64,000 nucleotides of DNA. Origin: a virus. Every line of letters starts with the position of its first letter. The first letter of the stretch is position 1. The position numbers were made by a program, and so were the translations under genes. The notes beneath the pieces were generated by a model, which was not told the DNA's origin, did no database searches, and saw nothing but the letters and a program-made list of their open reading frames with translations. The stretch is from positions 32,001 through 96,000 of the IMG/VR virus record IMGVR_UViG_3300006037_000005, one strand, 5' to 3'. Positions 10,571 to 61,713 of this stretch are shown one piece after another.

Positions 10571-10585
10571 GCAAAAACCGTGCCA
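10571..10585 (-). promoter_or_regulatory. Sigma-54 (-24/-12) promoter
   Basis: TGGCACGGTTTTTGC matches TGGCACG-N4-TTGC; intergenic, 35 nt before ATG 10536. Confidence 0.8.
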
Positions 10586-10610
10586 TATCAAAATTTGGTA
10601 TTATGACATA

Positions 10611-12752
10611 TCATATGTTTATTTTAATATTATCTTTTTTAATAGAGTGTATATTTGCACAATTGTGGCATATATAAAACCCATAAGTTATCCCGTTCGG
10701 GCGTTCCTCAGATAATGGATCATACAATCTAAGATATGGGTGTATCTGATCAAGAAGACTATTTCCACTATATGCTTTATGTCCATAATATTTGTAGTTT
10801 TGATAATATGGTGGTAATTGTTTCCTATCAGTAAGATCAAGAAGCCACATAAAACCAGCATAATGCCTTATATTGATTTGGTATGTATGTTTGGCTTTAT
10901 TCTTTCCACAACACTCACATATATCAGCATCCATAAAGTTGTCTGATTTTCCAATACCAACGCCTCTATAAATATCCACACCTTCTTTTTTAGTTCTTCT
11001 ATTTATGATTATGGTCTCGCAATAATCACCATTAATACCATGTGGTGATATTAAATTTGTTACTGATTTGCATATCGAATTAAGTATCTTGTTGTATACA
11101 GTTTTTGAAGAAAATATCATTTTTTCGAATTCTTTTGTATCAGCATAGCTTCTGTTCTTTAGTTGCAATAGCAGTGGTTCTATTGTGTCTACAAATCTGT
11201 TATCTAAAATCAACCATTCAGACAATGATTCAAGATTATCATTTGTGGCAAGCCAATTGGCATCATACATGGGGTTAGACATAATTTCATTATACGATGC
11301 TTTTTCAAGAGATTTATAATTTTTGTTTAAATCGAGACTATTGAGTGTTTCCATAATCTCGTTGAATCTATTTTTATTTTTATCGTTCCAATATTCCATC
11401 TTTGTATTATCATTAAGTAGGATGTTTTCACCAGACAACAATTTGTTGTTAATAAATTTCTTTGCTGTGGTCATTCCTGTTGATATATTGTTATTATCTA
11501 TCGATAAGAAATTTATGATTTCATTTGATAATAACAATATGAAAGCTTTGTTGCTATCGGATAGGGAATTTATATCATACTTAATAAAAATTGGATTTAT
11601 AAAGATAAATTCATCTTTATCCCATCTTACTATAACCTCCCCATTTTTCTTTATTGTACCATAATTTGGTGTATCACTATCAAAGAAATATCTTTCTTTC
11701 CTATCAACATGTATTGATGAGAAATCAACACCTAAAGATGTCAGATATTCTGAGATTTTCTTTTTTGTTATAATTTCAGATGTCTTATGATAAGTCCCAC
11801 TTTTGTGGTTTTTTCTATATAAATCAAATTCTTCCCTAACTTCTTTTAAGATATCATATTTTATAATCTTATTCTTTATTATTTGATTTTGTTGTATTGC
11901 CAATTCTTCTATATTTTCAAATATTTCATATGGCAAATCACAATTTTCTATTTTATCATCGTAATTTCTCCATATTGAAGCCCTCTCCATCCTAAGATGT
12001 GGTTGTCTAGGATTATCAAAATGTATTTGGTCTGATACTATCCATATTGTATCACCTTTATGAATAGTGAACACGAAACTCGATAGTATCGGATTTATAT
12101 TTGACAATTTACCAAATAATGTTATAAATATTTTATCAGAATCGGCTTTTTTAATGAATTCTTTTTGTTTAGACAAAAAATCGAGCCAGCTGTTTATATC
12201 AGATGATATACCTATCTCTGGATAGAAAACATATTTGTCTGATATAAATATTTTGTCTTGACCACCATGGTGCAAATATGTTTTAAAGAATTGTTTAGAA
12301 AAAACCATTTTATTCAATTTTAGAATATCTTGTGGTTTAAACGAAAAATTATCATCAAAATTGAACCCCATGGATTTTATCTGATTCATCCTTGGTATAA
12401 AATAAAACAATTCCCATTCACTATACAAATCTATTATTCCAGAGATTGTGTCTATTAATAGTTTGACCGATTCTATACTTTGTTTTGTGAAATCTTTTTT
12501 ATGTGGTAGGTTTATATAATCTGATAGACAATTATAATAAGAATTGGTTTTAAAGCAAATAGAATGGAGCTTTATTATGCAGATATCCGAATCAAATTCA
12601 TAAGAATTTTTAATATCAAACACTGTTTTTTTGATATTATCAGATGGTAAGATTCTCACAGATTTTGATTTATCTTCAGGAAAAGCATCTGTAAAATCAA
12701 ACTCAAATACCTGTTCTAGATTAGAAACAATCGATATTATTTTATCTTTCAT
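10611..12752 (-). CDS. Large hypothetical protein with C-terminal Cys pairs (possible Zn binding)
   Basis: 713 aa ORF; CECC and CHNC near the C-terminus. Confidence 0.6.
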   Translation of the reverse strand: MKDKIISIVSNLEQVFEFDFTDAFPEDKSKSVRILPSDNIKKTVFDIKNSYEFDSDICIIKLHSICFKTNSYYNCLSDYINLPHKKDFTKQSIESVKLLIDTISGIIDLYSEWELFYFIPRMNQIKSMGFNFDDNFSFKPQDILKLNKMVFSKQFFKTYLHHGGQDKIFISDKYVFYPEIGISSDINSWLDFLSKQKEFIKKADSDKIFITLFGKLSNINPILSSFVFTIHKGDTIWIVSDQIHFDNPRQPHLRMERASIWRNYDDKIENCDLPYEIFENIEELAIQQNQIIKNKIIKYDILKEVREEFDLYRKNHKSGTYHKTSEIITKKKISEYLTSLGVDFSSIHVDRKERYFFDSDTPNYGTIKKNGEVIVRWDKDEFIFINPIFIKYDINSLSDSNKAFILLLSNEIINFLSIDNNNISTGMTTAKKFINNKLLSGENILLNDNTKMEYWNDKNKNRFNEIMETLNSLDLNKNYKSLEKASYNEIMSNPMYDANWLATNDNLESLSEWLILDNRFVDTIEPLLLQLKNRSYADTKEFEKMIFSSKTVYNKILNSICKSVTNLISPHGINGDYCETIIINRRTKKEGVDIYRGVGIGKSDNFMDADICECCGKNKAKHTYQINIRHYAGFMWLLDLTDRKQLPPYYQNYKYYGHKAYSGNSLLDQIHPYLRLYDPLSEERPNGITYGFYICHNCANIHSIKKDNIKINI

Positions 12753-13785
12753 ATTTTTATTTTGTAGATGTCCCCTTCGAGTTCCTCTATCTGTGTTTTT
12801 GTTTTGTTGAAGTATGATTGTTTCACATCATGTTGATATTTCATTCTAAAAATATCAGATTTTTTGTAAAAATCTTCATTAATTCTTTCTATCAGAAATT
12901 CCACTATACCATCGAATTTACACAGATTTTCAAAATAGGCATCATTGTTTGGAATCTCTGTTTGCATCTCTGGCACAGATTTGTATGTTCTTTCCTTTAG
13001 TACTTTCATGTTCCAAATGAAAGATGTCGATAATATACCCAAAAGATATGAATCTTCTTTTGAAATTTTATTAATATTTTCCTTATGATATTGAGAAAAA
13101 TAATAGATTAAGATGTCTATTTCTTGCGAACAAAATGCAAGTAGAGGTTTTATGGTATCTTTGATCCTATTCTCCATATTGTTATGGTATTATTATTTCT
13201 CCAAACACTGATTCTGCAAATTCTGGTGTCATAGAATGCATAAACAATTTTAATGCATCTCTTTTAATTTCATAGCCTTCAGATTTAAATGGTTCTGTTT
13301 CATTTACCCTATTTATGAAAGAAATAGATTTTAGTTCCATCTCTTTAAATACTGCAATAACGGATTCATTAGTTGTTGCTTTTCTTTGTGAGATTATATC
13401 TTTTGCCTCAATAACCATACCACTCAAAGCTATCAACAATCTTTGCTCTGCAGATTTATCTTGATCTTCCTCCTGATAAATTCTAAAATATTCTCTGGCT
13501 TTCAATTTATATGTATTAAAGATTGTATGATATTTTCGTCTTTATTGAACATCATGCCTGTGATAAATTTATCACAGGCATTTTCAACTTTATTCCAGTC
13601 AATGAATTTTGTTGGCATATTACACAAATGTTTATAACCAAGATTAACATCTTCTCTAGATCCTATAATTTCATATGTGTTATCTTTATGCATTGCTATC
13701 ACAAATAAACCATATCCGAAGAAAATTGGTGTATCCTCTTTTTTGGGATCGAATGCTACTAATATAAAAAGATTTTTCATATCTA

Positions 13786-14253
13786 TTAAAAACTTGGATC
13801 CCAGTATTCTTCTTGCATACCAAAAACTATATTTATCTTTGGATAGCTAGTTACAATTTTAGTAATACCATCTATTAATTTCAAGAAACCATTTTCATCA
13901 AAATGATCTGGATTATAAACATTTTCTTTTCCACAGAATTGTATAGATCTTGAGATTTGTCTCCAACAGCCTTGTCTGAATACCAATTCCACAGACTGTT
14001 CTTCAAGTTCCGAATAATCATATTGTTGACCACTATCAGTTAAACCAAGATTATCTATTCTTTTTGCTCTACATCTTCTGATGGTACATTTGGTTTGGTC
14101 TTTTGAAACTTCAACAACTTGATAAGCATGTCTATCTGTCCAAAATAGAACTGTTGCACCTTTACCAACTTCTGGCTTTGCTTGAGACCCAGACATCATA
14201 TGGTTCATTAAACTTCCTGTTTGTGAACCCAATTTTAGCATTGTATTTTTCAT
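13786..14253 (-). CDS. Phage hypothetical protein, first gene after a sigma-54 promoter
   Basis: 155 aa ORF starting 38 nt downstream of the -12 element at 14291. Confidence 0.65.
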   Translation of the reverse strand: MKNTMLKLGSQTGSLMNHMMSGSQAKPEVGKGATVLFWTDRHAYQVVEVSKDQTKCTIRRCRAKRIDNLGLTDSGQQYDYSELEEQSVELVFRQGCWRQISRSIQFCGKENVYNPDHFDENGFLKLIDGITKIVTSYPKINIVFGMQEEYWDPSF

Positions 14254-14290
14254 AATTTTTTATTTTTAAAATGTTCTTATATAAATTATT

Positions 14291-14305
14291 GCAAAAATCG
14301 TGCCA
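14291..14305 (-). promoter_or_regulatory. Sigma-54 (-24/-12) promoter
   Basis: TGGCACGATTTTTGC exact consensus; TGACA cluster upstream at 14326-14365. Confidence 0.82.
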
Positions 14306-14650
14306 AATTTTTCAGATGGATTTTGTGACATGACAATTTGGCAGACATGACACCGTGACATGACAATTTTTAATATGATTATAAAGTTTCTTTGTTCCAA
14401 CAAGACCCCATTGTTTATGTTTTGATATCAAAGCATTAAAGACAAGAAGTTTATCAATGGAATTCTGATCTTTTTGTTTCATTTCGCAATATTTGAAGAC
14501 TGGTGTTCTGTATAGACCATGTATCAATTCAAAATTATCTTTGATTAAAGTTATGTGTTCTTCTGTTAATTCAGATAGCTGTTTTTGGATTTCTTTTGTT
14601 GAATTTGCCATAATTTTTGATTTTAAAAATGTTCTTATATAAAAATTATT

Positions 14651-14665
14651 ACAAAAATCGTACCA
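14651..14665 (-). promoter_or_regulatory. Degenerate sigma-54 promoter
   Basis: TGGTACGATTTTTGT with a downstream leader very similar to the 14291 copy; TGACA-ATC-TGACA at 14689-14701. Confidence 0.6.
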
Positions 14666-14785
14666 AAATTTAGGTGTGCTTCATCGGATGACAATCTGAC
14701 ATGGTTTGTTTCAGTACAGAAGATAGTAGTTCTGAAATAACCTTATTAAACGAGATAGTTTTGATAAATTCTGTATGCTATGGTA

Positions 14786-15202
14786 TTAAACACACAAATG
14801 GTTAGGATTATCATATGGAAGATGTGGTATTATTGAAATGTCTATATAATATTGAGGATCTGTATGTTCTGTTTGTTGAATCACAAGCCCACTATATTTT
14901 AATTTGATACTCCTATTTATGTTTATCACATATGCTTCTCTACCATGGTGTGATTGTTTGAATCTATTAAAATTCTCTTCATCTTCATTGAGTATACTAC
15001 CACCAATAGTGTTTGCTATCTCATCAAGCATTAGAATTTTGTCTCCTATGGTTTTTTGCCAGGGTATAGCTATGAGATCCAAATCTCTGTTCATAGACCC
15101 ATGTAGAACTATATTATATCCATACCTTAATCCTATCTCTTTTATGATCTCGAAATAAAATGCATATAGACTTGGCTTTGCGTGTATTGGTTTATTATTC
15201 AT
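14786..15202 (-). CDS. Putative nucleotidyltransferase-fold protein
   Basis: hG[S]..DxD-type motif LHGSMNRDLDLIAIPW. Confidence 0.45.
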   Translation of the reverse strand: MNNKPIHAKPSLYAFYFEIIKEIGLRYGYNIVLHGSMNRDLDLIAIPWQKTIGDKILMLDEIANTIGGSILNEDEENFNRFKQSHHGREAYVININRSIKLKYSGLVIQQTEHTDPQYYIDISIIPHLPYDNPNHLCV

Positions 15203-17425
15203 TATTATATTAAATTTACAACCATATCAAGATATATGAATCTTTTAATTATAACCTTATTTTGATCTGATATAATAGCTTCAAAAACAGGCTTAAATTT
15301 TATGTATTCCTTGTGTATATTGTATATTTCTTCTGATTCTTTTGTTAGTAGTGTGATATCTGCAAACAATGTTCTATCTTCAACATAAATAGTAGATTCA
15401 AAATGAATAAAATCGTGGTGCGATTCATCCCTATAAATATGATCTATTATATTTCTTATTCTGCCATATATTTTGGTTTTATCTCGCATCATTGACAACA
15501 AGATATCATTCGTCTCATATGGATATATTCTACCAGAATCCAGGATTTCATCAAATCTGAGAATTTGAATCTTTTTAATAATCATTTTATAATCCTCCCA
15601 CATTCGTAACAGTTATCAAAATTTATGTGGTTCATATGCCCACAGTCACATTTGTTTGTACTTAAAATAATATCTGACGATCTGTGTGTTGCAGAAAGAT
15701 CGTGGTGATCTATGAACATTATAACATCAGATAGACCAGGTTTTTTGGGTAAAGATGCTCTGTTTTTATTTAGATATTTTAAAGTATTAATGAATAGATT
15801 AAAATACCTTTCATTGAAAATTATCAATAATATGATATGAATCTTTCTCATGATAAAATAAGAAATAATATGAAAATTTTAGGAAAATAGAATATGATAT
15901 TAAAAAACCAAAATTCAGTATCATTATTATATTGGAAATATTTAATAATAAAAAATCTAAAAATTTCAATGGTCGAATTCAAAAGACTTAAATATAAAGA
16001 GTACATATAAATATTCTGCCATTTATCTTCAATACCAATAATATACAATAATAAGGTATAGAAAACCCACCAAAATGATGTATATATAGCCAATGAATCT
16101 GGGAATTTATTTATATCTGTGTGTGAACCATATAAATCTGATATAAAAATTGTAAGAATTTCAAAAAGAATCACAGACAGAAACAGTATTTCTATTTTAC
16201 TAGTCATTTTTTCTTTTGATGAAATTTTCAACAATATGATCGATGTCACTACTATCAGAATTCATAGATTTAGCTAATTCAAAGAGATCAGATCTAGAAT
16301 AAAGCTTAGAATCATCATTATTGCACATAATACCCAAATCCAAAATTTGCTCTTCTATATTAGATTTTAAATCGAGTTTTATTGATTTAAAACCACAGTT
16401 AGAAAGTATATCAGATTCTGCTTTAGATAAATAATATTTATATGATATAGGTGAATTTGAAGCGAAGATTTTCTTGTTGAAAAAACCAGAATCTTGGTTT
16501 GTTTGTGATACTTGTACTCTACCTATTGATAAATCGAGATAAATCTCAGATTTTTTAATAAGATACATTTGATATAGAAGATAAACCGAAGCACCTATTA
16601 TTTGTATTTGCAATTCTTTTATATCTTGTTCCATTTTGTTTTTATTAACAAAATTAGCTATGGTTACAAAATTTCTAATTTAGAATAATTATATCCAATA
16701 TCTCTGATATTGTTATAGAATATATTATATTACCAAGTTATCAATATTAAGAACCCATTGTTTATCATGGATTTCTGATGTATGAATATCAAAGATTGTG
16801 TTATCACCTTTTGATATTGGAGTTATTATAATTTTTGGTGGTATTGGTGAACTAAAAGGTTTAAAGTGTTCTTTCTCAGGAAAACCAAGTTTCTGAAATT
16901 TTCGCATAATCTCTATAGAAAGTAAATGTGCCTCTCTATCAAGGGGTAAATTGTAATTTTCATAAAAATGAACTTGTTCTTGATCATAGACAAAATCAAA
17001 ATCGAATCTTTGTATAGTATCAATTATATTGAACCCCCAAGAATACATTCTGAGATGTAAAACATCAGTTGATATTGAGCGACTACCACCCAATTTTGAT
17101 ATAAGATCTGATCCAAGATTGAAATATTTCTCTATTATCTCTTGTGTTATGAATTGTTTATTTTTAGTGATGTTCACGTTTGAATCCATTTTTCTCCAAC
17201 ATTTTATCGACTCTATTTAGATCTTTTTTCGATTCATAATTATCCCAAAAACCGTCACTAACAGCAGAAAAAGTATCAAGAATTGATACCAAAGATATCA
17301 ATTCTAAATCTGTTAATTCCAATTTGTGTTTTTTTCGTGCCATAGCATATTTATTATTTAAAACATATTAAGTTACATTAAATTAGTGGTGTGATCCACA
17401 CTAACCACACCAAAATAACGATTGC

Positions 17426-18836: not shown

Positions 18837-18912
18837 AGTTTGAGAGGAGAATTGAACTCCTGTTAAATTAGTTTTGCGGACTAATCCCTATACCAACATT
18901 GGGTACTCAAAC
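18837..18912 (-). tRNA. tRNA-Cys(GCA) with atypical C33
   Basis: GTTTGAG/CTCAAAC acceptor, TTAGT-CCGCAAA-ACTAA anticodon arm, AGGAG-TTCAATT-CTCCT T-arm, U73 discriminator (Cys identity element). Confidence 0.8.
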
Positions 18913-21537: not shown

Positions 21538-21540
21538 ATT

Positions 21541-44033: not shown

Positions 44034-45053
44034 TTAATCAAAAATGCCATATTCCTCAACAACACCATTTTCATCAAAGATTTCATAATAGCCTTTTTGG
44101 CCTTCATAATAGTCTATCGTTTCGAAGATTATGTGATTAGAATTATCATCAAATCCATATGTTTTGAAAATACCATGTTTCAGACCATTTTTGTAAACAC
44201 CAGATATTTTGATTTCTCCAGAATTGAAATAGACAGTGTTCCTTCCATCAAGAACACCGTTGTTGTAAGTCATGCTTGAAACAATGCAACCATCTTCATC
44301 AAATTTCTTTGCTACACCGTGTATTTTCGAATTCTCATTCAAAACGAATTCAAATTTCAATTCACCATTTGTGTGATAAAGTCTGATTGTTCCCTTTACA
44401 TTGTGGTTACCATCTTCAAAATCAGATGATGCCAATTCTTCTTTATACGCTGTACGTATTTTGTCACGAATCCTGTGTACCCTTGTTTTTACAGCACCTT
44501 CGGTATTAAGTTCGTATTTTTCTTTTATCTGAGTATAATCATTTTGTGAGAAAATCGCATCTTTAAAAAATGTTAATTTATCTTCCTCAAGATTTTCAAC
44601 AATGTTAAGAACTCTATTGTATTGTTTATCGAAACTGTTATGTAAAAGTTCACAACACTCCACAGAATTCATTGAATCATCTTTATCTTTATTGATGATG
44701 TCTAGTAGATCATTCGAATCTTCAATATCATCGAAGACGTTTAATTTTGAGATTGCTACAACTTTAGCTTTTGCAGATTTGTTGTAAAGCATTTTAGAAA
44801 AATTTTGCGAAAGAGTGTAGATGTAAGATAAGAAAGATTTATCATCTACGAAAGTGTAATTTTTGTTGGAATGGACCTTTATGAAGACCGTCTGTGCGAT
44901 TTCTTCAACCAAGGCTGAATTTCTAAGAATGTTGTTTGAGGCTGACTTTACTATCGGTAGACATATTTTGTAAAGTTCATTGAAATTTTTTTCACTACGG
45001 TTTTCGAAATATTGTTTTGCAACAGCCTGGATTTTTAAAGATTTTGGGTTCAT
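44034..45053 (-). CDS. ECF-type sigma factor fused to C-terminal MORN-variant repeats
   Basis: Region 2 VEEIAQTVFIKV..SFLSYIYTLSQN; region 4 EGAVKTRVHRIRDKIR; repeats YHTNGELK, YNNGVLDG..YFNSGEIK, YKNGLKHG. Confidence 0.8.
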   Translation of the reverse strand: MNPKSLKIQAVAKQYFENRSEKNFNELYKICLPIVKSASNNILRNSALVEEIAQTVFIKVHSNKNYTFVDDKSFLSYIYTLSQNFSKMLYNKSAKAKVVAISKLNVFDDIEDSNDLLDIINKDKDDSMNSVECCELLHNSFDKQYNRVLNIVENLEEDKLTFFKDAIFSQNDYTQIKEKYELNTEGAVKTRVHRIRDKIRTAYKEELASSDFEDGNHNVKGTIRLYHTNGELKFEFVLNENSKIHGVAKKFDEDGCIVSSMTYNNGVLDGRNTVYFNSGEIKISGVYKNGLKHGIFKTYGFDDNSNHIIFETIDYYEGQKGYYEIFDENGVVEEYGIFD

Positions 45054-46251: not shown

Positions 46252-48246
46252 GTTTTTCTATATATAACAAAAATCTATCTTTGAATAGGTATGAATTGTG
46301 GTTCACCATTTTCTATGGTGAAAGAACCATATGGTAAAGCGAATTCTTTCACATCTTTTACATCTTCATACTTCACTGGTATGCCAAATTGTAAAAGTAA
46401 AGTATAAAGATTCGTAGCTGTTACATCAATAAGTGTTCTATCTTCCTTATATTCCACCTTGAATGCTATTTTATCTTCATCTATATCAACACCAGAATTG
46501 TGTAAAGCAAGGAATACATCTCTTACAGCTAAACAGAATTTTTGTTTGTCTGTTTTATCACCATCTTTCTCGATATCAAATATATCTTTTATAATAAGTG
46601 AAACGGTTGCATTGAGTTTTTCTATATCAAAATTGGCTATGATCTTCTGTTGGTGAAAATTTCTAGCATCTTCAATATTATCAAAATTTGTTGATAACAC
46701 TGGATATATTTTAACTATATGAGATTCTTTATATTTAGCAACTTTATCCACAAGATCTTTAAAATCTTGGCAGATTGTTATAAGATTTTTCGTTGCACTA
46801 TCAGATGTCTGATCAGATAAAATAAGACTTGTTTTTTTCGTGAAATAAACTACGTATTCTGGTTCTTTAAATTCCATTTTAAATATTATTTTCTATTTCT
46901 TCAATAATTATATCGAGATCGTAATCATTATCGAGATCGTAATGGTATTTCTTCTTTGTGGCATCTGGTATTTGATAGACTTCAAAATTCTCTACATCTA
47001 TGCAGATGGATTCAGATTCCGAGTCCTCATCATCAAAGAAGCTAAAACAATCTCTGTTAAATCCAATGTTTATAAGTCTATCTTTTAATTTGATTAAAAG
47101 ATTTGGATCTGCCTCTTTTATTAGAACGAACAATTTTTGTGCCATATTTTATTGGAGAGTGTTATTTAAATCACAATTGGTTTTAATTAAAGAATCTAAA
47201 CTTGAAATCTGATCAAGTTTCTTTTGTTCATACATTTCCTTTATTCTAACCATAGCATAACCACCAAGGTTCAATCTCTCTTTTATGGAGAAAGATGGTG
47301 AAGTTTCTATGAAATTTACTGAAACATCTCTACCATTTAGAACACCTATTTTGACATGGATGAATGAATCAGATTTCTTGGTTGATATAACAAAAGTGTC
47401 GTTTGTTTGTATTATGGTTGAATCTGGATCATTAACAAGGCTCAATATTTTAAGGAATATTGAGTAATCCTCCTTGTTTGTGGTTCTTTGGAAGTCTGTT
47501 TTTTGCAATCTTTTTTCATTGAACAGCTGATACCAAAGTTTGACAAAATTCAATTTTATTTTTCTAAACATTTTCTTTTTTGTTTATTTATATTTTGTAA
47601 CACAAATGGTTACAGAATTGCGTCAGATATATCGTAAACAATCAATATCGTGCGTACTGAGATATGCTTTGAAGGATGGATCATTATCTATTACAAAAAT
47701 TATATCATTCTTATCAAAAAGAGAAAATTGCCCAAGGAAATATGTGTTCAATATTAATATTTTTGATTCTATATATGATATTCCGTTTCTCAAGAAATGT
47801 ATATCATCAAAAGGTATATTATTATCTTTCAGTATGAATTTGAATTTATGCTTTAATTCAACATTGAATTCTGACAACATTATTATGTTGAATTTTTTAT
47901 ATAATTCTATCAGCAACGATTTGAATTTCTTATTTATATCATAAAAAAATTCTCCACTTTCTAATATTATATGTTTAAACACAATATTAGAATCAACAAC
48001 AAGCAACATAAAAATTCTTTTAGGCTATTTTTTCTTTATTTTGGCATAAACCTCTTTCTTGGAATGAGAAAGCCCATTGCTAACAATTGTACATTTGTCT
48101 AGGTGAAGGTGTGGTTTTATCTCTCTATATTTTGTGTCGGCATCTTTGTCTGAGCTAAGTAATTTTACAATATTCTTAAATTCATCTTCTGAAATTTCAG
48201 AAGATATTTCCAACAATAATTTATACATCATTTTTATTTATGTAAT

Positions 48247-48279: not shown

Positions 48280-48285
48280 GATTTA

Positions 48286-50621: not shown

Positions 50622-51056
50622 ATGTTTTATTCTTTAATACCTTTATTGTTATCAGCCATTTGTTGTTCTGTTATGGATATATGTGTTCATAAATTCAAAG
50701 TTTCAATATTTAGTAAGATAAAAAACGGATTTTGGTATCAATGGTTTGATGGGGGTGATTCTTGGAAAAACAAATATGTTGATAGAATCCCCAAAAATGG
50801 TTTTGTCAAAATGAAAATTCTCGGTATTATTTTCAACAAACCTGTTCAACTATCAGATTCTTGGCATTTCTTCAAGATGTTGTTTGTCTGTTTCTTTATT
50901 TTATCGACAATTCTTGAAGGTTATTTTATGTACAATTGTTTCCGACCTGTTGATAATCAATTTTTATATTTTTCAGTCAAATATACCATCTATGGTGTTC
51001 TTTGGAACATTGTTTTTAGCGTATTTTATCGCCACATCCTTAAACTCAGATCTTAA
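50622..51056 (+). CDS. Membrane protein
   Basis: Three hydrophobic segments; SWKNKY and SDSWHFFK motifs. Confidence 0.65.
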   Translation: MFYSLIPLLLSAICCSVMDICVHKFKVSIFSKIKNGFWYQWFDGGDSWKNKYVDRIPKNGFVKMKILGIIFNKPVQLSDSWHFFKMLFVCFFILSTILEGYFMYNCFRPVDNQFLYFSVKYTIYGVLWNIVFSVFYRHILKLRS

Positions 51057-51092
51057 TAATTTATTTTGTAGGAAGACTTTAATCTTGAAAAC

Positions 51093-51539
51093 TCAGCCTT
51101 TAACAGTCCCTTCTGGTACATCATATTCATCAGCAAGTTCTTTATATTTATAGCCATCAATTATCTTAAAAAAGATTTCTGAATGTGTTTTGTTTGGATA
51201 GGATTTTATAAAATCTTCAAGCATTTTGGTGTCGAAATTGTTAACTGTTACACAAGATAGATCCATGGAATTTTCTTGATATGAGATATCAGAACATATT
51301 GGTGTTTTTGAAGACTTTCTATATCTATCAACAGACATATTTTTCATAACAGTAAAATACCAAGATTTGAAATACCCTTTCTCATCAACATAAGTATCAA
51401 GATATGACAAACATTTCAAGTTGGTATCCTGTATTAAATCTTCTGCTTGATCCCTATCGAAATTGCAAAGTTTAGATGCATATCTTTTAATATAATCTTT
51501 ATGGATCTTTACATTTGACACAAATTCTTCTTTCGTCAT
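51093..51539 (-). CDS. ECF sigma factor, truncated by TGA within the region 4.2 recognition helix
   Basis: AEDLIQDTNLK, FKSWYFTVMKN, GYKYKELADEYDVPEGTVKG*VFKIK. Confidence 0.85.
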   Translation of the reverse strand: MTKEEFVSNVKIHKDYIKRYASKLCNFDRDQAEDLIQDTNLKCLSYLDTYVDEKGYFKSWYFTVMKNMSVDRYRKSSKTPICSDISYQENSMDLSCVTVNNFDTKMLEDFIKSYPNKTHSEIFFKIIDGYKYKELADEYDVPEGTVKG

Positions 51540-51883: not shown

Positions 51884-51915
51884 AATAAAAATCAAATTAA
51901 CTACTAAACTAAATC

Positions 51916-53151
51916 TCAAATCTCAAATCTATCCTCTGTATATTTACCAGTTCCAATCCAACGCATTTTAACATTGGAGAATTCTTTTGAAGATTTTATG
52001 ACAGAATAAATATTTTCTTCTAACCAATCTTTGAATTTATCGGTAATAATATCTGTTCTCTCATTCATATTCCAATCCACATGGTTAGCAAAATTTACTG
52101 ATATGAATATTTTATGTGGTGTTTGATTGAAGATTATTGAATCTTCCAAATTTTTTTTAGAAAATGTTGCAACTCTTCTTGGTAATTTTGTTAAAGTTGT
52201 TAATGATGTTAAATCTTCGTCTGCACCACAACCAAGTCTAACATCTTCCCAAGTTATTTCTTTTTGATCATCATACCAATCACCAGAATATGAATCAACC
52301 TCCTGATAGTCGTAGTTACCAGATTGAACTTCAGCCCAAGTCAAGAATTTTCTTGAAACAATATCAATATATTTCTTGCTATTGATACGAATCGGAAATG
52401 TTCTAGTATTTAATGCTATATTGCCAACAACTGTGACAGGCAAAAACATATCATCAAGACCAGCAGAAACAGTCACATTTCTTGATGTGGTATTCGTACC
52501 AAACAAACCATAGCCATTAGAAAGAGGAAATCCTTGAGCAAGTTCCAACAAACCAGACTGACCTTGGGAAAGTCTCGTTAAAATTTCCCTTGGAACATCA
52601 CAGATAAACTCAGCAAGTTCTGGGACATCTTTAGCCAAAAGTTGATTTTTATCTCTCAGCACACGTCTTGCTCTAGTGCATCCAACACCACTTGATGTGC
52701 TACCAGTTGCATAAGTACCCTTGTGTTCTTCAATGGCTGGTTTACCATCAAAACCATATTTACCTTCTTCATAGAGTCTGTCGATATCTTGAACAATAGC
52801 TGTCATTGGAGAGATACCAATTTTGTTACGAGGGATACCTGTAATTTCAATTTCATTGAAAAATGCTTTCAAATCTATGATGCCACCTTGACCAATATAC
52901 ATTTTTTCGAATTCGTAATGGCGATGTGCATTTGAATTAAATTGTTTATAAACAATTTCTTTGCTACCATTGGCTCTATCGATTACAGTATGTGATGCTT
53001 GTGGTGCAAATGTATTACAAACAAATTGGAATTTACCAACATTTTGCATCGTAATAAAAGAGCCAAGGCTACCTTTGCCTGCAGAACCAGCACATGAATC
53101 GAGTATTACCGATAATTTACCTGATAAGAAAAATTCGTCTTCTTTTTTCAT
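51916..53151 (-). CDS. purZ: PurZ-like N6-succino-2-amino-deoxyadenylate synthase (PurA paralog)
   Basis: DSCAGSAGKG (Ser in place of PurA catalytic Asp13), ASHT, GST, AQG, TSRNVT, RTFPIR, TTLTKLPRR, VNFAN; likely start MKKEDEFF at 53151. Confidence 0.85.
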   Translation of the reverse strand: MKKEDEFFLSGKLSVILDSCAGSAGKGSLGSFITMQNVGKFQFVCNTFAPQASHTVIDRANGSKEIVYKQFNSNAHRHYEFEKMYIGQGGIIDLKAFFNEIEITGIPRNKIGISPMTAIVQDIDRLYEEGKYGFDGKPAIEEHKGTYATGSTSSGVGCTRARRVLRDKNQLLAKDVPELAEFICDVPREILTRLSQGQSGLLELAQGFPLSNGYGLFGTNTTSRNVTVSAGLDDMFLPVTVVGNIALNTRTFPIRINSKKYIDIVSRKFLTWAEVQSGNYDYQEVDSYSGDWYDDQKEITWEDVRLGCGADEDLTSLTTLTKLPRRVATFSKKNLEDSIIFNQTPHKIFISVNFANHVDWNMNERTDIITDKFKDWLEENIYSVIKSSKEFSNVKMRWIGTGKYTEDRFEI

Positions 53152-53263
53152 TTCTAATTTTTTTGGTGTTTCTTCTATTATTGCTTTACTACATGGGGGT
53201 TTCAATATAAATGGTGTCAAGAAACTTCAGACGTTCCAATGGTAAATAAAGAAAAGGAACAGC

Positions 53264-55099: not shown

Positions 55100-55116
55100 T
55101 AACCTTTCTGATGTTT

Positions 55117-55821
55117 TTATTGTCTGAATTTTGAAAGTCTCGATTCTGAAATAGATTTCTTTGGTTTTATCTCTCCGTTATATTCATCTATGGTAATATC
55201 TGTCTTACTACCAAAATCCCCAATAAATGTTTCTTTATCGAAATCCCAATAGCAAACATCGGCATTGTTGATGAAATTATAGAGTGTTCCATCATCGTAT
55301 TTTTGGATGTCAGATTTTTCTATACCACTATATGGTGGTGCATATAGCATAACTTGTTTGTCTGAATTTGTTGATATATTATACCAAACACCATCAGATC
55401 CCATAGCTTCTTCTATATCACGCTTTGAATCAATATTCCAGCCAGTATCATTCTGTTTTCTATATAATAGATGCATTTCATAGAGATCACCAGAATCCTC
55501 CAAATTAGATTCTGATATTTTACCCAAGTATTTTACTTCTTCTTTCGTCAACAATCTTGAAACAATACTGTCATCAATGTAACCATTATCATCAATATAA
55601 TCGTTCATTTTGTTTAATATTGGTTCTGTTATCCTATTAACTGGCATATTTTTTATTTTTTTTACCAAATCTTGTTGAATTTTTGTAAAATTCATTCCAG
55701 AATTTCTTTCTATCTTTATCATCCATAGTTGATTCTTTAATTTTGCCACCATTTTTATATGCTTCAATCTCTTCTTTAGAAAAATCAGAAACGATTTTAG
55801 ACATTTTTGGTGCACCTTCAA
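55117..55821 (-). CDS. Hypothetical protein, probably the frameshifted C-terminal half of the upstream LRR gene
   Basis: 185-bp overlap with 55637..56134; ends ESRLSKFRQ like the paralog at 63006. Confidence 0.5.
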   Translation of the reverse strand: MKVHQKCLKSFLIFLKKRLKHIKMVAKLKNQLWMIKIERNSGMNFTKIQQDLVKKIKNMPVNRITEPILNKMNDYIDDNGYIDDSIVSRLLTKEEVKYLGKISESNLEDSGDLYEMHLLYRKQNDTGWNIDSKRDIEEAMGSDGVWYNISTNSDKQVMLYAPPYSGIEKSDIQKYDDGTLYNFINNADVCYWDFDKETFIGDFGSKTDITIDEYNGEIKPKKSISESRLSKFRQ

Positions 55822-56134
55822 GAGAAGTCAATTGATTATCGGAACAATAGAATCTTTCACATTCTTTTGGTGCACCCTGTAGCGAGGTTAATTCGTTGCG
55901 GTCACAATAAAACCTCCAGGATTCTTTTGGTGAACCTTTTAATGAAGTTAATTTATTGTTAGAACAATAAAAAACCCCATCTACAATTCCGAATTGAACT
56001 GGAATTTCCTTTAATCCTTTATTTGAGATATCAACATACCCATTAACGTCGACTGTTAGATCGTCATTAATTATGTAATTATTGATACCCATTTCATTAA
56101 GCCATACTCGAATCTCTTCTCTGCTTTTTAACAT
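55637..56134 (-). CDS. Leucine-rich repeat protein (FxCSxNxLTSLxGxP repeats)
   Basis: Three 20-aa repeats; paralog of 63006..63557; GATAAATA upstream. Confidence 0.8.
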   Translation of the reverse strand: MLKSREEIRVWLNEMGINNYIINDDLTVDVNGYVDISNKGLKEIPVQFGIVDGVFYCSNNKLTSLKGSPKESWRFYCDRNELTSLQGAPKECERFYCSDNQLTSLEGAPKMSKIVSDFSKEEIEAYKNGGKIKESTMDDKDRKKFWNEFYKNSTRFGKKNKKYAS

Positions 56135-57820
56135 AATATTTCTATTTTTTTATATTTATCTTCTTGCCACTATTTCAAATTCTTGATCAACATAGTTAGT
56201 ACACATACCATGGTTTTTATTAATAAAAATGATCCTATCACCATTGTGTTTATACGGATTTGCATATATACCAGAAGATGCATTCCTGTCTAAATGTCTT
56301 ATATCTAAAACAAGATGCTCTATAGTGTAAAGTTGTTTATTGATCTTATGTTTGTAGATATTCATGGTTTATCATTTTGAACTCACTCTTTTTTAATATC
56401 TCTATAGATACCACCATGTTCCTTGTATTCGTGATCTGTTATGGCACACACCACTTTTCTTACTGTATCAAGATCAACCCCTATTTTTCTGCTCAAATTT
56501 TGCATCTCACTCGTATTGGTTGGTAAATAGACGGGAACAATACCTTTCGAGAAAGCATCCATTGTGTTATTAACTACCATTAACTCCTCTTTGGATAAAC
56601 TAAACAGTGATGTTACACGTTTTGATAGGCCACTTAGTGTGGTAACATATTTTTCATTATGTACGTTCATTGATACCTTTAAGTGTGCTTTGAAAACGTC
56701 TATTAATCGTTCTGTTAAGGAATATAAATCATTAGTCTCTCTAATCCTCTGTTTGAGAGAAACTATATCTTTATCTTTAGATGCTAATTTGCTCTTTGGG
56801 ATTTCTTTATAATCTTCTTTTAACATATACATCTGATTCCTCAGTATGTCTGCTAGTATCATCATGTGAAGCTCGTTGTGAGTCATGTTTTATTCGTTAT
56901 CAATAACTAATTTTATACCAAATAATATTGCTTTTGCACTCCACTAGCAATTTTAGCGGTGGATATATTACTCCTGCAATCTTTCCAACTCATATCTTAC
57001 CAAAGCCATTTCATCAATAGCCCTAATATGTTCTTCAATTTTTTCACGTTCTTTAATCAATTTGATTACTTCTTCGTTGTTTGTTGCTTTTGTCCAATCT
57101 ATCATATCCGTAAATTTTACTATCTGCTAACAGTTCATATAACCCCCCAATTGATATAATATTTTGACTTTTTATGAAATTTACTTGATACGAAATCATA
57201 CTCAATTTTATAAACAAGATTATTACCGAAATCAATATCATATACATTACACACATCTACGAGTCTTTTAAAATCATCATCTATATAAAAATCGTTCAAA
57301 GTGTCCAATAAGGTATCATGGGAATTAATGAACAAATTAATACCAAGAGTCCATCTGAAAACATTTTTTGCTATCAATTCAAACTGTTTTTTGTTTGAAA
57401 ATGTAGAATCTATGAAAACATTTTTTATTTTATTTTCTTTTATATAGTTATACAAATATTTATCATATCCATCTTTATCTGAAGATTTCGAAAGATGTAA
57501 AAATGGTTGTAAGATATTTGGTAAATTGCCCATGACACCCATGGATTGGGCAAATTTAGAGGCAATATCTATTTCATTGGGAATGATGGAATCGTTTTCC
57601 AAAATAATCGTGTGTGATTTACCATGGATATTTAAAAAATATCTGTTATCAAAGCATTCGATTATTTTATTGTTATTCAAGAATATTTCCCAATCATAGT
57701 AAGTACCAAAATAAATCCCATCATTTTGGCGTATCAAAATACCACAATCTCCATTAAAATTTTTTTGGCAATAAGCATTTATGATGCTAAGATCCTGTTC
57801 CTTTATAAATGTTTTTAATT

Positions 57821-58267
57821 TCATATCACTCCATGATTTAATTTTGTGAAAATGTGTGGTTTCCTTATCATGGTGTTGTTTGCAACACCTTTGATTTTAT
57901 CAAAACCAAATTTCCTATATAATTTTATAAGAGCATCTATATCAGTACCAAAAGAAGAATCTGGCTTTATAAAAGATTTCAATTTATGTTTATCGCAAAA
58001 ATCAGAAATTTCTTCCAAAACTTTAGTACCAAACCCCTGTCTTCTATATTCTTCTTTTATTTCTATTAAGCAGATATTTAGAAAATCAGATTTCACAGAA
58101 CAATTCAAACACAATGATTGAATAGGATATTTGTTCAAGAGATTGTTCTTTAAGCAAATAGTAGCAAGTTGTATATCATCACCATTATAAAGCATATTGT
58201 ATTTCTGCTCTGATTCAGTATGGATGATATTTTCTATTTTCTTTGTCATTGTCTTATGGATTTTCAA
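57821..58267 (-). CDS. GNAT family acetyltransferase
   Basis: IEIKEEYRRQGFGTKVL motif A and LYRKFGF. Confidence 0.8.
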   Translation of the reverse strand: MKIHKTMTKKIENIIHTESEQKYNMLYNGDDIQLATICLKNNLLNKYPIQSLCLNCSVKSDFLNICLIEIKEEYRRQGFGTKVLEEISDFCDKHKLKSFIKPDSSFGTDIDALIKLYRKFGFDKIKGVANNTMIRKPHIFTKLNHGVI

Positions 58268-58475
58268 TAATGGCTGTCAAATTTTGTTCAAACCATATGG
58301 ACATCTTATCTCGTGTTGGTGTGTCGTGCACACTAAATTTTATTGCATCATATTTTATATGATCTGGTAGTTTATTATAGCAAGCAACTATACCCTCATC
58401 GCTTTTTATATTTAAACCAGTTGCATCAAAAATCACATCATGCAATCTATTTAGTGAATCTCTATCAAATTTTGT

Positions 58476-58523
58476 TACCATTTTTTATATTTTGACTGCT
58501 ACCATTTTTTATATTTTGACTGT
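58476..58523. repeat. Tandem duplication, 2 x 24 bp, covering the start of ORF 58254..58481
   Basis: TACCATTTTTTATATTTTGACTG(C/T) twice. Confidence 0.85.
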
Positions 58524-58574
58524 TACTACTTCTATATAAGGCACTAAATATACCTGCGGACGTTAGCCGTAATG

Positions 58575-58907
58575 TTAAGAACGTCTGTGCTTAATATCTC
58601 CTGACATAGTAGAAATAGAACCACCAACCATATTGCAATCAACATCACCAGACATTGTAGAAATAGAGCCATCAACATCGCCAGTAACTTCAACATCACC
58701 ACTTTGAGTTGAAATTGATTTTACACTTCCTTCAACTGATACCTTGTTGCAAGCGTCTACCTTCAATTGTTCAATATTACCAACAACTGAAATATTAATT
58801 TCTTTGCTGTCAGGCGTTACATCTTTGCCGTTAATTATGACTTTGCCATTTGTTACTACAATACTATTACCTGAATATGTATTGCCATTAATTGTAATTG
58901 TACTCAT
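58575..58907 (-). CDS. Small beta-solenoid repeat protein (DUF4097-like)
   Basis: Repeats of GSISTMSGDV. Confidence 0.6.
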   Translation of the reverse strand: MSTITINGNTYSGNSIVVTNGKVIINGKDVTPDSKEINISVVGNIEQLKVDACNKVSVEGSVKSISTQSGDVEVTGDVDGSISTMSGDVDCNMVGGSISTMSGDIKHRRS

Positions 58908-58914
58908 TTTTATA

Positions 58915-59538
58915 TCAAAATTTTCTTGATCCTATATTAAACACTTCTAACTCACCCAGAGATTTAAAAATTGTATTACCAACTTCTACGCTTTTTGATA
59001 TACCATAATGAGAAAATATGAACATCGATGGTATATGTATCTCTAACAGTCTATCAAGAAATTTATTGGTTGGAGTAAGTTGCGTGGTATCTGCGAAATG
59101 GTGCGATACTGACGAAGGACATTCATGGCTTATAACAACATATGGTTTGTGGGTAGCATAAGATACAGAACATTGTTGCATGTCATAAAATGATAATTCT
59201 TCTCTTTCAAAATAATCAACATCCAATGTTCTAAATATCCTATCTCTTGATTGTGCACCTCTTACGAAGAACATCCCGTTGTGCATACCAAAATCACCAA
59301 GACTGTACTTCGAACCAAGATAATTCAAATCATCATTATTTCCAAACAAAATTTTATTCTTGCTGTTGTTAGTACAATTTTCATGCCATTCATGATCTTC
59401 TCTAAAACCAAAATCACCAAGTTGTACAGTATCAACTCTTTGGTTAGAATGTAGAATATCTTTATAACTTTCTATTGATGAATGACATGATCCTATCAAT
59501 ATTGTTTTTTTAATTTCCTTGTATAATCTACCTCCCAT
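58915..59538 (-). CDS. Metallophosphoesterase-like protein with degenerate metal ligands
   Basis: IGSCH, QLGDFG, GNND, SHECP, SHY in place of GDxH/GD/GNHD/H/GHxH. Confidence 0.7.
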   Translation of the reverse strand: MGGRLYKEIKKTILIGSCHSSIESYKDILHSNQRVDTVQLGDFGFREDHEWHENCTNNSKNKILFGNNDDLNYLGSKYSLGDFGMHNGMFFVRGAQSRDRIFRTLDVDYFEREELSFYDMQQCSVSYATHKPYVVISHECPSSVSHHFADTTQLTPTNKFLDRLLEIHIPSMFIFSHYGISKSVEVGNTIFKSLGELEVFNIGSRKF

Positions 59539-60171
59539 TTTGTATCAAAAAATCTAAATCTTTTATCATGTCTTTTTCCAAATCAGCCCATGTGCTCCAA
59601 TTGTGTGCTGGATTCTTTAATTCGAGATTTGGATAAGTACCTTTGTACTTTTTGATAAAATCTTCCTTTGAAAATCTTGGTTTATGTATATTGTAATAGA
59701 TTTTAAGTTTTCTAATATCATCGTTTGATGCATATTCTGATATTTTATTACAAACATCATCAAAATCAAATTCTACAATGTGGCGAAAACCAGGATCTAC
59801 AACCATATTTGTATCTTTCACAAAATTCTGTGAGATTTCCCCATTGTAATATAACAGGATTTTATGATTTCCAATACCCAAATCAAGATAAGATCTAAAG
59901 AATTTCATATTGAATCTATCCTTTTTGTGTTCTTTTTCCATCTCTTTGGCTTTAATATAACAATTCAAAAGCGATTGATCTTGTTCAGATAAGATACCAG
60001 AATTTGCTCCACAACAGAAATATGAAAAACCAAAATCTTCTAAAGGCAGATATGATACTGGTGGTTTTATATCAGATTCAAGCGATATCACATGGTTTGA
60101 ATTGTAGTATAAACTAAAATTTTTGTTAGAATTCCAATATTCAAGATTCATTGATAAGCATCTCATATTGC

Positions 60172-61671
60172 TCATTTAGAATTTATTATTTTTGTGATTT
60201 CATTGTCTATTTTAACAATATAAACACCTTGTTGTTCTATGAACATTTTGTTATCAAAAATTTTGTAATCCACATCATATCCTTGTATATTTTTAACAAA
60301 ACCTATTTGGCCTTTTATATTAAAATAACCATCTTGGCTAGGATTCGGATAGATCATATCATTTTGTATAGTATATTCATCTATAACGTTCACTATGGCT
60401 TGATTACCTATTGTGATTCTATGAAATGAATAATATCTTTGTTCATAAAATGTTATGCTACCATCTGTGTATTGAATATTATCAGATAAAACAGAACCCC
60501 CATCAATTGTTATATTATCATCATATTTTATGGTTTTCATACTAGACAAATCATCACTGATTCTCACTAAATATCTACCATCATTGCTATATCCTACAAA
60601 ATCTAAATCACCATTGTTGCTTGCCAAGAATTTTTTAATATACAATTGTGAGTTAGATGCAGTGCTTATGTTCATAAGATTACCGATAGCACCAGTAGTT
60701 CCATCCATTGTCGTCAGAAATTGGATTTCTGGTCTATCCATGTCTCTGCCAAGTAAATATATTTTGTTGGATTTTGAGAAAATCGGTTGTGGACCAACAC
60801 CATAAGAATAAAAATTTGTACTAAAATTTTTAATATTTAGATTTGTATCAAGTTTTATCATACGTGGATTAAGTCGATAGGTATCAGAACCAGATAGATA
60901 GATATCAGAATCATTTATGAATATTGAGAAATTATATTGTTTATCTTGGTAGAGTGCTATAACAGATCCAACACTGTCTATTTTATAATTTTGTAGTATT
61001 CTATATTTTGTTAAAATGTGTTTATACATTGTAACAGTTTTGTTGTTGACAATTTTATATTCAGATGTTGTACTTTGAACATATAAAGAATTTTTGTATT
61101 TGGTAGATTTCAATTCAGAATTTTCAAAATAGCCATAACCATAATCATATGGTAAAAATTTGTTATTGGCTTTGTTGGTTGAAATTATATCACCATTTAG
61201 TGGATTTATTACCATATTTTTCACACAACGTTCATTGGGCTTTGTAACAATTTTACCTGAGTCAATAAGAACCCAATTTACCATCACATAGTTTTGTATG
61301 GTATCAACCATATACATCAAATTCAATTTACCATTATTGTATGAGAAATCAACGAGATCGCAATTTTGGTAATATTTGTCTGTTCTTTGTACCTTCAGAA
61401 TATTTGTATTCCAGACTGTAACCCCATCAACGATTTTAAATATTGAGAAATTATAAAGACTGTCTTTTTCAGAGATTACTGTGTTGTTGAAAATACCACC
61501 CCTATACTTGGCTTTTGATAGATAATATCTTTCGTTGCCAACTTCTATGACTTTCTGAATGTTGATACCCAAATAATCTTTTTGAATCGATTCATTAGAA
61601 ACTTGTGAGAACATCTGATTTGATACCATAATTGATATCAAGATTGCGATTACTTTAGAGAGATTTTTCAT
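60172..61671 (-). CDS. Secreted protein with T9SS type A C-terminal sorting domain
   Basis: Sec signal ending FSQ; C-terminal IYPNP...NIQG...GVYIVKI...KII. Confidence 0.8.
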   Translation of the reverse strand: MKNLSKVIAILISIMVSNQMFSQVSNESIQKDYLGINIQKVIEVGNERYYLSKAKYRGGIFNNTVISEKDSLYNFSIFKIVDGVTVWNTNILKVQRTDKYYQNCDLVDFSYNNGKLNLMYMVDTIQNYVMVNWVLIDSGKIVTKPNERCVKNMVINPLNGDIISTNKANNKFLPYDYGYGYFENSELKSTKYKNSLYVQSTTSEYKIVNNKTVTMYKHILTKYRILQNYKIDSVGSVIALYQDKQYNFSIFINDSDIYLSGSDTYRLNPRMIKLDTNLNIKNFSTNFYSYGVGPQPIFSKSNKIYLLGRDMDRPEIQFLTTMDGTTGAIGNLMNISTASNSQLYIKKFLASNNGDLDFVGYSNDGRYLVRISDDLSSMKTIKYDDNITIDGGSVLSDNIQYTDGSITFYEQRYYSFHRITIGNQAIVNVIDEYTIQNDMIYPNPSQDGYFNIKGQIGFVKNIQGYDVDYKIFDNKMFIEQQGVYIVKIDNEITKIINSK

Positions 61672-61698
61672 TTTATCTTTGTTTATATAAATAATATA

Positions 61699-61713
61699 GC
61701 AAAAATCGTGCCA
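61699..61713 (-). promoter_or_regulatory. Sigma-54 (-24/-12) promoter
   Basis: TGGCACGATTTTTGC, 28 nt before ATG 61671; five TGTCA/TGACA boxes at 61747-61780. Confidence 0.82.

Follow-up and report, generated by a model that had tools for sequence, protein, structure and literature searches.

Can a phage place a class of its own genes under sigma-54 (RpoN), the sigma factor of -24/-12 promoters? The question is raised by a 15-base core, TGGCACG-N4-TTGC, that recurs between genes in 64,000 nucleotides of viral DNA (hereafter the window), positions 32001-96000 of the linear, 126,598-base IMG/VR record IMGVR_UViG_3300006037_000005. CheckV estimates this record to be 60% complete, and our genome-wide searches cover its 126.6 kb; positions below are those of the window unless marked as genome coordinates. 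To our knowledge, described phage transcription programmes use the host primary sigma factor, phage sigma factors, phage polymerases or polymerase-modifying proteins, and sigma-54 is the sole bacterial sigma factor that requires an ATP-driven activator. Phage proteins that inhibit sigma-54 polymerase appear in the published work available to us in part, and a literature search returned no paper on a phage running a gene class on sigma-54. From sequence comparison, we propose that the cassettes built around these cores are probably sigma-54 promoters offered to the host holoenzyme, each with a copied heat-shock-type enhancer.

A composite cassette repeated between genes

An initial annotation of the window had reported three exact cores and one degenerate core between genes on the coding strand, and all four stand where it placed them. 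Exact matches occupy 10571-10585 (P5, TGGCACG-GTTT-TTGC), 14291-14305 (P4, TGGCACG-ATTT-TTGC) and 61699-61713 (P2, TGGCACG-ATTT-TTGC), and a two-mismatch match, TGGTACG-ATTT-TTGT, occupies 14651-14665 (P3); every one is intergenic and on the minus strand. The distance to the next ATG, given as 28-40 nt, needs a small adjustment: we measured 34 nt at P5 (open reading frame (ORF) 10063-10536, 157 amino acids (aa)), 37 nt at P4 (13786-14253, 155 aa), 39 nt at P3 (14312-14611, 99 aa) and 27 nt at P2 (60172-61671, 499 aa). Recurrence of the core had been judged unlikely by chance, and 100 dinucleotide-preserving shuffles of the window contained no exact copy (mean 0.00, maximum 0). Allowing up to two mismatches gave 8 matches in the window against 3.36 expected; we attribute to chance those at 47130, 51656 and 59374, which are sited within ORFs, and that at 11246, which is on the plus strand.

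The four sites are real, and that count was too low. Eight cores, 6 exact and 2 degenerate, are present in the whole record; all are intergenic and on the minus strand, in a genome whose intergenic share is 7% and whose minus strand carries 156 of 198 ORFs by a rough gene call. Their genome coordinates are 26956, 29871, 42571, 46291, 46651 (degenerate), 93699, 99728 (degenerate) and 108388, the last of these (P1, genome 108388-108402) heading the gene of a 128-aa helix-turn-helix (HTH) protein. The degenerate core at genome 99728 reads TGGAACT-ATTT-TTGT, and both degenerate cores retain the GG and the TTG. An ATG-led ORF lies downstream of 7 of the 8 cores, at 27, 34, 35, 37, 39, 56 or 68 nt. 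Of the 6 exact cores, 5 have an ATG-led ORF of 40 aa or more that begins 15-70 nt downstream, versus 19% of random positions.

Resemblance between the sites continues on both sides of the core. The cassettes are alike over some 45 nt; this shared stretch takes in TATA(A/G) at the predicted start and a leader with GAACATTTTAAAA, which could be read directly on the minus strand at 10537-10570, 14254-14290 and 14612-14650. A leader common to three sites had been noticed before, and GAACATTTT does follow 3 of the 4 window cores, being absent at 61699. With starts predicted from the nifH numbering (PMC5505868), 13 nt after the C of TTGC, transcription would begin near 10558 at P5, 14278 at P4, 14638 at P3 and 61686 at P2; the predicted start is the A after the conserved TATA, and the leaders measure 14 to 55 nt. 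The cassette leader is A-rich and has no Shine-Dalgarno sequence.

Upstream of the cores lies a second element, which the initial annotation had overlooked together with four further sites and two phage sigma-70-family genes. TGACA or TGTCA pentamers (boxes) precede all 8 cores, numbering 6, 3, 6, 2, 5, 1, 5 and 3 within 130 nt; they are sited 14-95 nt upstream of the TGG and are often spaced 0 or 3 nt apart. On the minus strand of the window there is a single TGTCA upstream of P5 (10604-10608), five TGTCA boxes upstream of P4 (14326-14365), two boxes spaced 3 nt upstream of P3 (14689-14701) and six TGACA/TGTCA boxes upstream of P2 (61747-61807, five of them at 61747-61780 and one at 61803-61807). 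The P1 array (genome 108444-108484) consists of six boxes in a perfect 19-nt inverted repeat, three boxes per arm, and the arrays flanking the cores vary in box number and order. Box density upstream of the 6 exact cores is 4.33 per 120 nt, versus 0.23 in random windows. All 6 clusters of at least three boxes in the record, the P4 array being one, lie upstream of cores (200 shuffles: mean 0.23 clusters, maximum 2), as do all 10 TGWCA-N3-TGWCA pairs, one of them at P3. Because these clusters and pairs all lie upstream of cores, the cassette unit is a composite of box array, core, start region and leader.

The combination is also retained in a distant relative, the viral contig G005 (16.6 kb, GC 33%), whose large terminase (TerL), tail sheath and next gene are 43%, 48% and 55% identical in amino acids. 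In G005 the same 15-mer stands 35 nt ahead of a 136-aa ORF and is itself preceded by TGACAG boxes; the rest of the spacer has diverged. Since core and boxes are retained at 43-55% protein identity, we argue that they have a function. This bears on the suggestion that the cassette is a selfish or recombination repeat with no role in transcription, an idea invited by copies near-identical over about 45 nt and by assemblies that break at cassettes. We find it hardly credible: every copy lies between genes, in their orientation and at a fixed interval from the start codon, box number and order differ between arrays, and the relative has kept the core beside a diverged spacer. As an observation on the assemblies themselves, contigs from either DNA run stop or fork at the cassette at 14259-14311, the behaviour of a dispersed repeat.

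Sigma-54 architecture and other promoter types

Which holoenzyme would read such a core? All 11 specified positions of the -24/-12 pattern are matched, with the GG and GC doublets ten bases apart, and TGGCACGATTTTTGC is identical at 14 of 15 bases to the nifH sigma-54 promoter oligonucleotide that, according to the available part of the source, was used for cryo-EM structures of the closed and intermediate complexes (PMC5505868). The phage sites share with bacterial RpoN promoters such as nifH the bipartite core, the ten-base interval between GG and GC and the repeated upstream boxes; they differ in forming eight near-identical copies at about ten times the density found in a Bacteroidota genome, and in having boxes that start only 14 nt from the core. 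No match to the sigma-54 family PF04552 was found in the phage record, and a Bacteroides thetaiotaomicron control was positive, so sigma-54 would have to be supplied by the host. We consider it likely that host sigma-54 reads the core.

Other promoter types describe the cassettes less well. A -35/-10 reading can be written as TTGGCA, 19 nt, TATAAG; it fails at P2, where the spacer is 21, and at P5, where the hexamers become ATGGCA and TATAGG. TTGACA-like and TATAAT-like hexamers 16-18 nt apart, by which we tested for sigma-70, were not found in the cassettes, and a generic sigma-70 consensus scan of the record showed no excess (67 versus 60.1). The cassette TATA(A/G)(G/T/A) stretch is offset by 2 nt at P2, with the -24/-12 blocks fixed. 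For the T4-type late box resembling TATAAATA, which we take to be the T4 late-promoter motif, none of 38 occurrences falls within 80 nt upstream of a same-strand gene. A different motif, TATATATA, is intergenic in 8 of 12 occurrences (versus 7% intergenic DNA) and stands near structural genes (genome 2400-16600), including sites ahead of TerL and the prohead protease. This T4-like phage probably uses it as its late promoter. The Bacteroidota primary-sigma -7 box TAnnTTTG, placed about 7 nt before the start in the available part of PMC9723704, is absent from the cassettes and unenriched between genes (20 of 248 occurrences intergenic, versus 7% intergenic DNA).

The same core recurs in G001, an unrelated viral contig of 216,910 bases (61% complete, GC 42%). 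It holds 28 exact and 40 one-mismatch cores, versus 0 and 1 for the reversed pattern, and their density peaks at 30-58 kb. Downstream of 60 of these 68 cores lies an ORF of at least 40 aa, at a modal distance of 33-35 nt, versus 24% of random positions. A profile anchored on TGGCAC alone (139 sites, about 70 expected by chance) carries information at a T two bases before it, a G or A after it, the -12 TTG plus C or T, and an A after the -12; positions 16-30, where a -10 hexamer would fall, carry little. As a sequence pattern, the profile is a sigma-54 architecture, reached without forcing. G001 resembles our phage in having many cores and no sigma-54 DNA-binding domain, and PF00158 matches it only in a Clp-type protein that has two AAA domains. 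It differs in its upstream regions: there are 0.16 boxes per 120 nt at the 68 sites and 0.28 at random positions, so TGACA/TGTCA is not enriched. Several G001 cores are preceded by a hairpin containing GGGGTATATTAAA.

By tblastn, only 3 proteins are common to the two phages, all of the families phrog_14949 and phrog_12005. We considered these proteins as a shared activator and rejected them, as the families also occur in named Bacteroidota phages without the core (0 of 7). A pattern scan of IMG/VR with the core extended by the next four bases returned 24 loci, G005 among them. Viral contigs L008, L009, L010, L017, L019, L022 and L026 (43-55% GC, up to 355 kb) each show a single sigma-54-type core after a terminator-like hairpin; these seven cores precede a gene with a Shine-Dalgarno sequence, and three of the loci are identical over the stretch shown.

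A phage-encoded reader has to be weighed against sigma-54, as the record contains sigma-70-family genes of its own. One, at 51093-51539 on the minus strand, encodes a 148-aa protein with matches to PF04542 (44.6-46 bits) and, across a TGA, to PF08281 (16-19 bits); this in-frame TGA interrupts the region 4.2 helix, and 39 further codons are open beyond it (50976-51539). Because TGA is an ordinary stop in this record, ending 40 of the 134 ORFs of at least 100 aa, it marks either a truncation, an error or a read-through site. The second candidate, of 339 aa (44034-45053), has a weak sigma-70 region-2 match. One of these, or another phage factor, might read the cassettes, their likeness to sigma-54 promoters then being convergent or accidental. 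Besides the Sigma70_r2 protein of the record, G001 has two sigma-70-family genes (62.6 and 65 bits), and a -35/-10 reading can be offered for both phages, as TTGGCA, 16 nt, TATAGT in G001. We nevertheless regard a phage reader as improbable: agreement at 11 of 11 -24/-12 positions recurs in two unrelated phages with differing downstream sequences, the -35/-10 reading breaks down at P2 and P5, and the G001 information resides in TGGCAC-R and TTG-C/T, with 4-5 nt between them. A pair of blocks separated by one helical turn is at odds with known sigma-70-family geometry. In addition, the 148-aa gene is stop-cut in region 4.2, the sigma-70 scan is without excess, and tblastn (E 1e-3) finds no homologue of the record's sigma gene in G001.

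T4 late transcription depends on gp55, gp33 and a sliding clamp acting as a mobile enhancer. The phage studied here is T4-like in its RFC-type clamp loader, UvsX-like recombinase, tail sheath and intergenic TATATATA, and both systems, as far as the available part of PMC2988020 describes T4, involve a gene class that needs an activator besides its recognition factor. They differ in that the core here is of the -24/-12 type, not a single -10-type box, and in that the recognition factor would be host sigma-54, not a phage protein. SPO1 and phiEco32-like phages, in the partial accounts available, encode sigma factors that redirect host polymerase, and our phage likewise has sigma-70-family genes of its own; the motif here lacks -35/-10 geometry.

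Heat-shock promoters of the probable host phylum

The phage is a myovirus with a GC content of 30%, and it encodes a tail sheath, a large terminase, a prohead protease, an SbcC-like nuclease, a UvsX-like recombinase and an RFC-type clamp loader. Its host is probably a member of the Bacteroidota, to judge by sequence matches, and perhaps of the Flavobacteriia. For a 209-aa protein adjoining the cassette at genome 29871, all 25 matching phage records come from Bacteroidota phages or gut and faecal phages, comprising Prevotella, Cellulophaga and Tenacibaculum phages, one crAss-like phage, and gut and faecal phages; for a 154-aa protein in the operon of the same cassette, all 13 are Flavobacterium or Cellulophaga phages. 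We take the host to be a Bacteroidota member because of these 25 of 25 and 13 of 13 records and the T9SS-tail-like end of the P2 protein. The phrog_14949 and phrog_12005 proteins, with function unassigned, lie at genome 29932-30561 and at 8475-8939 of locus L003 (whose position 6464 is genome 26464); since the collection of phages examined has them in Bacteroidota phages alone (25 of 25 and 13 of 13 records), they are useful host markers. A search for sequencing runs containing this DNA listed no RNA run; of the DNA runs, one is labelled freshwater.

In this phylum sigma-54 is tied to protein folding. The available part of PMC9723704 describes a Flavobacterium psychrophilum -24/-12 motif, SM4, that heads groESL, lon, dnaK, grpE-dnaJ, htpG, skp and a gliding operon; mutation of conserved SM4 bases lowered reporter activity, and the genome has one sigma-54 and three PF00158 proteins. 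A sigma-54-linked cluster of GroEL, GroES, DnaK, DnaJ, GrpE and IbpA is most enriched in Flavobacteriia (PMC12316311, available part). The cores can be found in the phylum at large: four Bacteroidota genomes from our pattern scan have 4-19 exact cores each, versus 0-2 in the control. One of them, G036 (4.3 Mb), has 19 versus 0, and 6 of the 19 are the exact 15-mer of the phage, which none of 60 other genomes of the phylum sample contains. The G036 cores stand mostly before exported-protein genes, with one box in 19 x 150 nt. In a Chitinophagales-labelled genome, G037:C75:296784-344466 has eight exact cores in 48 kb, seven of them on one strand, a phage-like density; the cluster might be a prophage or island with the same strategy.

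Where boxes and core occur together, the genes are mostly those of chaperones. We searched 301 Bacteroidota genomes with the composite pattern TGWCA-N0-3-TGWCA-N8-38-TGGCAC-N5-TTG and a reversed control, and obtained 15 matches versus 2. Behind them are 8 Hsp70 genes (3 Pfam-confirmed), 2 Hsp20 genes (2 Pfam-confirmed) and 3 others, and two matches within a cas gene and an EF-G gene we take as chance. Two of the dnaK matches share a 14-base double box with the P1 array of the phage. Directed at other heat-shock genes, a stricter-core search in two genomes gave 4 matches, of which only two were recognised, both as dnaK promoters. In a sample drawn blind to the boxes, namely dnaK genes preceded by a sigma-54 core under a strict pattern, the 14 promoters had 2.86 boxes per 120 nt versus 0.31 in 140 same-locus control windows, which are coding, not intergenic, DNA; all 14 had at least one box and 6 had an N3 pair.

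These promoters and the phage cassettes have in common the -24/-12 type, boxes often 3 nt apart, the probable host phylum and, between the chaperone regulon (PMC9723704 and PMC12316311, available parts) and the phage set, exported proteins of unknown function. They differ in that the Bacteroidota dnaK cores read TGGCACA and end in TTGA or TTGT, whereas the phage cores are the full TGGCACG...TTGC, and in that phage arrays reach six boxes, one of them a perfect palindrome. The boxes at the dnaK and hsp20 promoters (loci L322-L330 and L335-L349) may be the heat-shock activator enhancer of Bacteroidota. We infer that such boxes could be a defining trait of Bacteroidota sigma-54 heat-shock promoters, which is our own reading and not a published definition. 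As a general partner of sigma-54 the boxes were rejected, since the G036 and G001 cores lack them.

Taken together, core, spacing, strand, linked boxes, conservation in a relative and occurrence of this core in Bacteroidota genomes support the idea, put forward in the initial annotation, that the phage transcribes a gene class with sigma-54. Its alternative of a phage-encoded sigma-54 found no support, the 126.6 kb having no PF04552 match, no PF00158 match over the cut-off and no GAFTGA-like motif. We propose that each cassette places one to six boxes before a core near the strongest known for sigma-54 binding, followed by the start region and an A-rich leader 27-68 nt before the gene. Holoenzyme bound to the core would remain a closed complex until an AAA+ activator, sitting on the boxes and hydrolysing ATP, opened it about 13 nt after the C of TTGC. 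The simplest candidate would be the host heat-shock sigma-54 activator, because the boxes match those of host dnaK and hsp20 promoters. Infection would load the cell with foreign protein and switch on the stress pathway, and the eight blocks would form a stress-gated class apart from the likely late class marked by TATATATA. From the shared boxes, the cassettes may recruit the host heat-shock or protein-quality-control activator of sigma-54, and the eight blocks may fire under infection stress; we hold this part tentatively.

The boxes might instead be bound by a phage protein, the cores still being sigma-54 cores. The binder would be the 128-aa HTH protein or a product of the missing 40% of the genome, and would set timing as an activator, adaptor or repressor. 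The P1 cassette, with its six-box palindrome, heads the gene of that HTH protein, a layout typical of autoregulation; the G036 and G001 cores, free of boxes, speak against the boxes as a general partner of sigma-54; and the record is 60% complete. Set against this, the same boxes with the same 3-nt spacing stand at dnaK and hsp20 sigma-54 promoters of Bacteroidota, and a small HTH protein without an ATPase could not open a sigma-54 complex alone, in a record with no GAFTGA-like loop. We regard a phage binder as unlikely, whichever of the three roles it would take in setting the timing, though it is the alternative we weigh most seriously.

A further possibility is that the sites do not drive genes at all and act as docking sites, the cores soaking up sigma-54 holoenzyme and the boxes the heat-shock activator while phage genomes accumulate, so that the host stress response is blunted. 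Closed complexes of sigma-54 holoenzyme are stable without activator (PMC5505868, available part), the cores are near-optimal, and the record has 6 cores in 0.127 Mb compared with 19 in 4.3 Mb of G036. A sponge would need neither genes on the coding strand at 27-68 nt nor a conserved start region and leader, all of which the phage cores have, and in G001 most sites (60 of 68) lie ahead of an ORF, with a modal distance of 33-35 nt. We consider docking alone highly improbable.

Several observations weigh against the proposal of host-read promoters with a copied enhancer. No PF00158 activator domain scored over the cut-off in the phage record, and the phage sigma-70-family proteins could be promoter readers themselves. 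The cassettes are so alike that shared descent, and not selection, explains much of their identity within the record. G001 indicates that boxes are not needed for the phenomenon in general. Boxes 14-95 nt from the core are closer than typical enhancers. The strict dnaK pattern matched only 14 of 151 genomes (0 in the control), and coding-DNA controls weaken the comparison of 2.86 with 0.31, the intergenic comparisons being the G036 and G001 cores. Among sheath relatives (30-44% identity, 29-434 kb), 1 of 30 has any exact core, and none of 7 named Bacteroidota phages has the core at up to one mismatch; on these two counts, the strategy is rare.

Candidate activators within the record were followed up individually. 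A weak PF00158 match (12.3-16.7 bits) proved to be an ABC/SMC-type ATPase and was rejected, as was a clamp-loader-like AAA protein, which is RFC-type. GAFTGA-like and RpoN-box-like motifs were absent from the 126.6 kb.

Genes behind the cores and meaning for phage biology

Overall, the eight blocks encode an AAA ATPase, a small HTH protein, an LRR-like protein, a putative secreted protein of T9SS type and a DUF4884 protein resembling a lipoprotein, together with small proteins of unknown function. The P5 block (8443-10536, minus strand) comprises a 157-aa protein without a family and a 537-aa AAA ATPase (PF00004, 53.7 bits; phrog_29662), whose relatives at 35-43% identity are on contigs of up to 2.25 Mb, many of 150-550 kb. 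This ATPase was rejected as a sigma-54 activator, the genome-wide PF00158 search having no match there. The P4 block (10611-14253, minus strand) has ORFs of 155, 92, 107, 142 and 713 aa, none with a PHROG, Pfam or NCBIfam match, and a search of viral contigs found no close relative of the 713-aa protein. Behind P3, the 99-aa ORF (14312-14611, minus strand) is likewise without a family match.

The 499-aa P2 protein (60172-61671, minus strand) has a signal-peptide-like N-terminus and, below threshold, a C-terminal T9SS-type sorting domain. Its last 80 aa alone match PF18962 Por_Secre_tail (E 3e-4, 21.5 bits, cut-off 27); neither NCBIfam nor Pfam on the whole protein gave a T9SS-tail match. At P1, the 128-aa protein has a C-terminal HTH with weak matches to NF040595 (26.6 bits), phrog_3855 (E 4e-4) and PF13542 (15.8 bits), and a gene behind P1 carries DUF4884. 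The HTH protein lies on a 204,113-bp contig, with a 70% identical relative on a 3.4-kb contig; an alignment against metagenome and viral contigs gave no match.

The core at genome 26956 heads an open frame of 144 codons (genome 26464-26898, minus strand) that has no ATG, GTG or TTG start for 82 codons, at which point a 62-aa ORF starts. A frameshift, a long leader containing mini-ORFs or an unusual start codon may account for this frame, and an Rfam search of the ORF-less stretch behind the cassette returned nothing meaningful. Searches for close kin of the phage were similarly sparse: a TerL search gave relatives at 23-35% identity only, and a 38-position cassette pattern had no match in metagenome contigs.

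More tentatively still, we suggest that a lytic, probably 2-aminoadenine-containing, T4-like phage copied both promoter halves and set them before eight blocks of accessory genes, that the folding alarm of the host serves as its timer, and that the sites, as they multiply with the genome, also drain activator and sigma-54 from chaperone genes. As the initial annotation speculated, ATP-driven opening might aid transcription on harder-to-melt Z:T DNA. A candidate PurZ is encoded at 51916-53220 (minus strand), with a partial adenylosuccinate-synthetase match (34.6 bits, residues 73-190).

The promoter type is textbook; what appears new, as read from the sequence and not found in the literature, is that a phage would build a regulon on it and copy a host enhancer to go with it. 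To the core itself we add the tight coupling of boxes and core, their resemblance to the putative enhancer of host dnaK and hsp20, and a relative, G005, that keeps both. If the proposal is true, the boxes would offer a testable enhancer for the Bacteroidota heat-shock regulon, whose activator site we did not find described, no search having been aimed at that site alone. The cassette would also give Bacteroidota, for which genetic tools are few, a compact and strong promoter module that can be switched tightly. For the phage, it would represent a new viral way to read the state of the host, with expression tied to a stress pathway, and it suggests that sigma-54-null or activator-null hosts may partly resist such phages.

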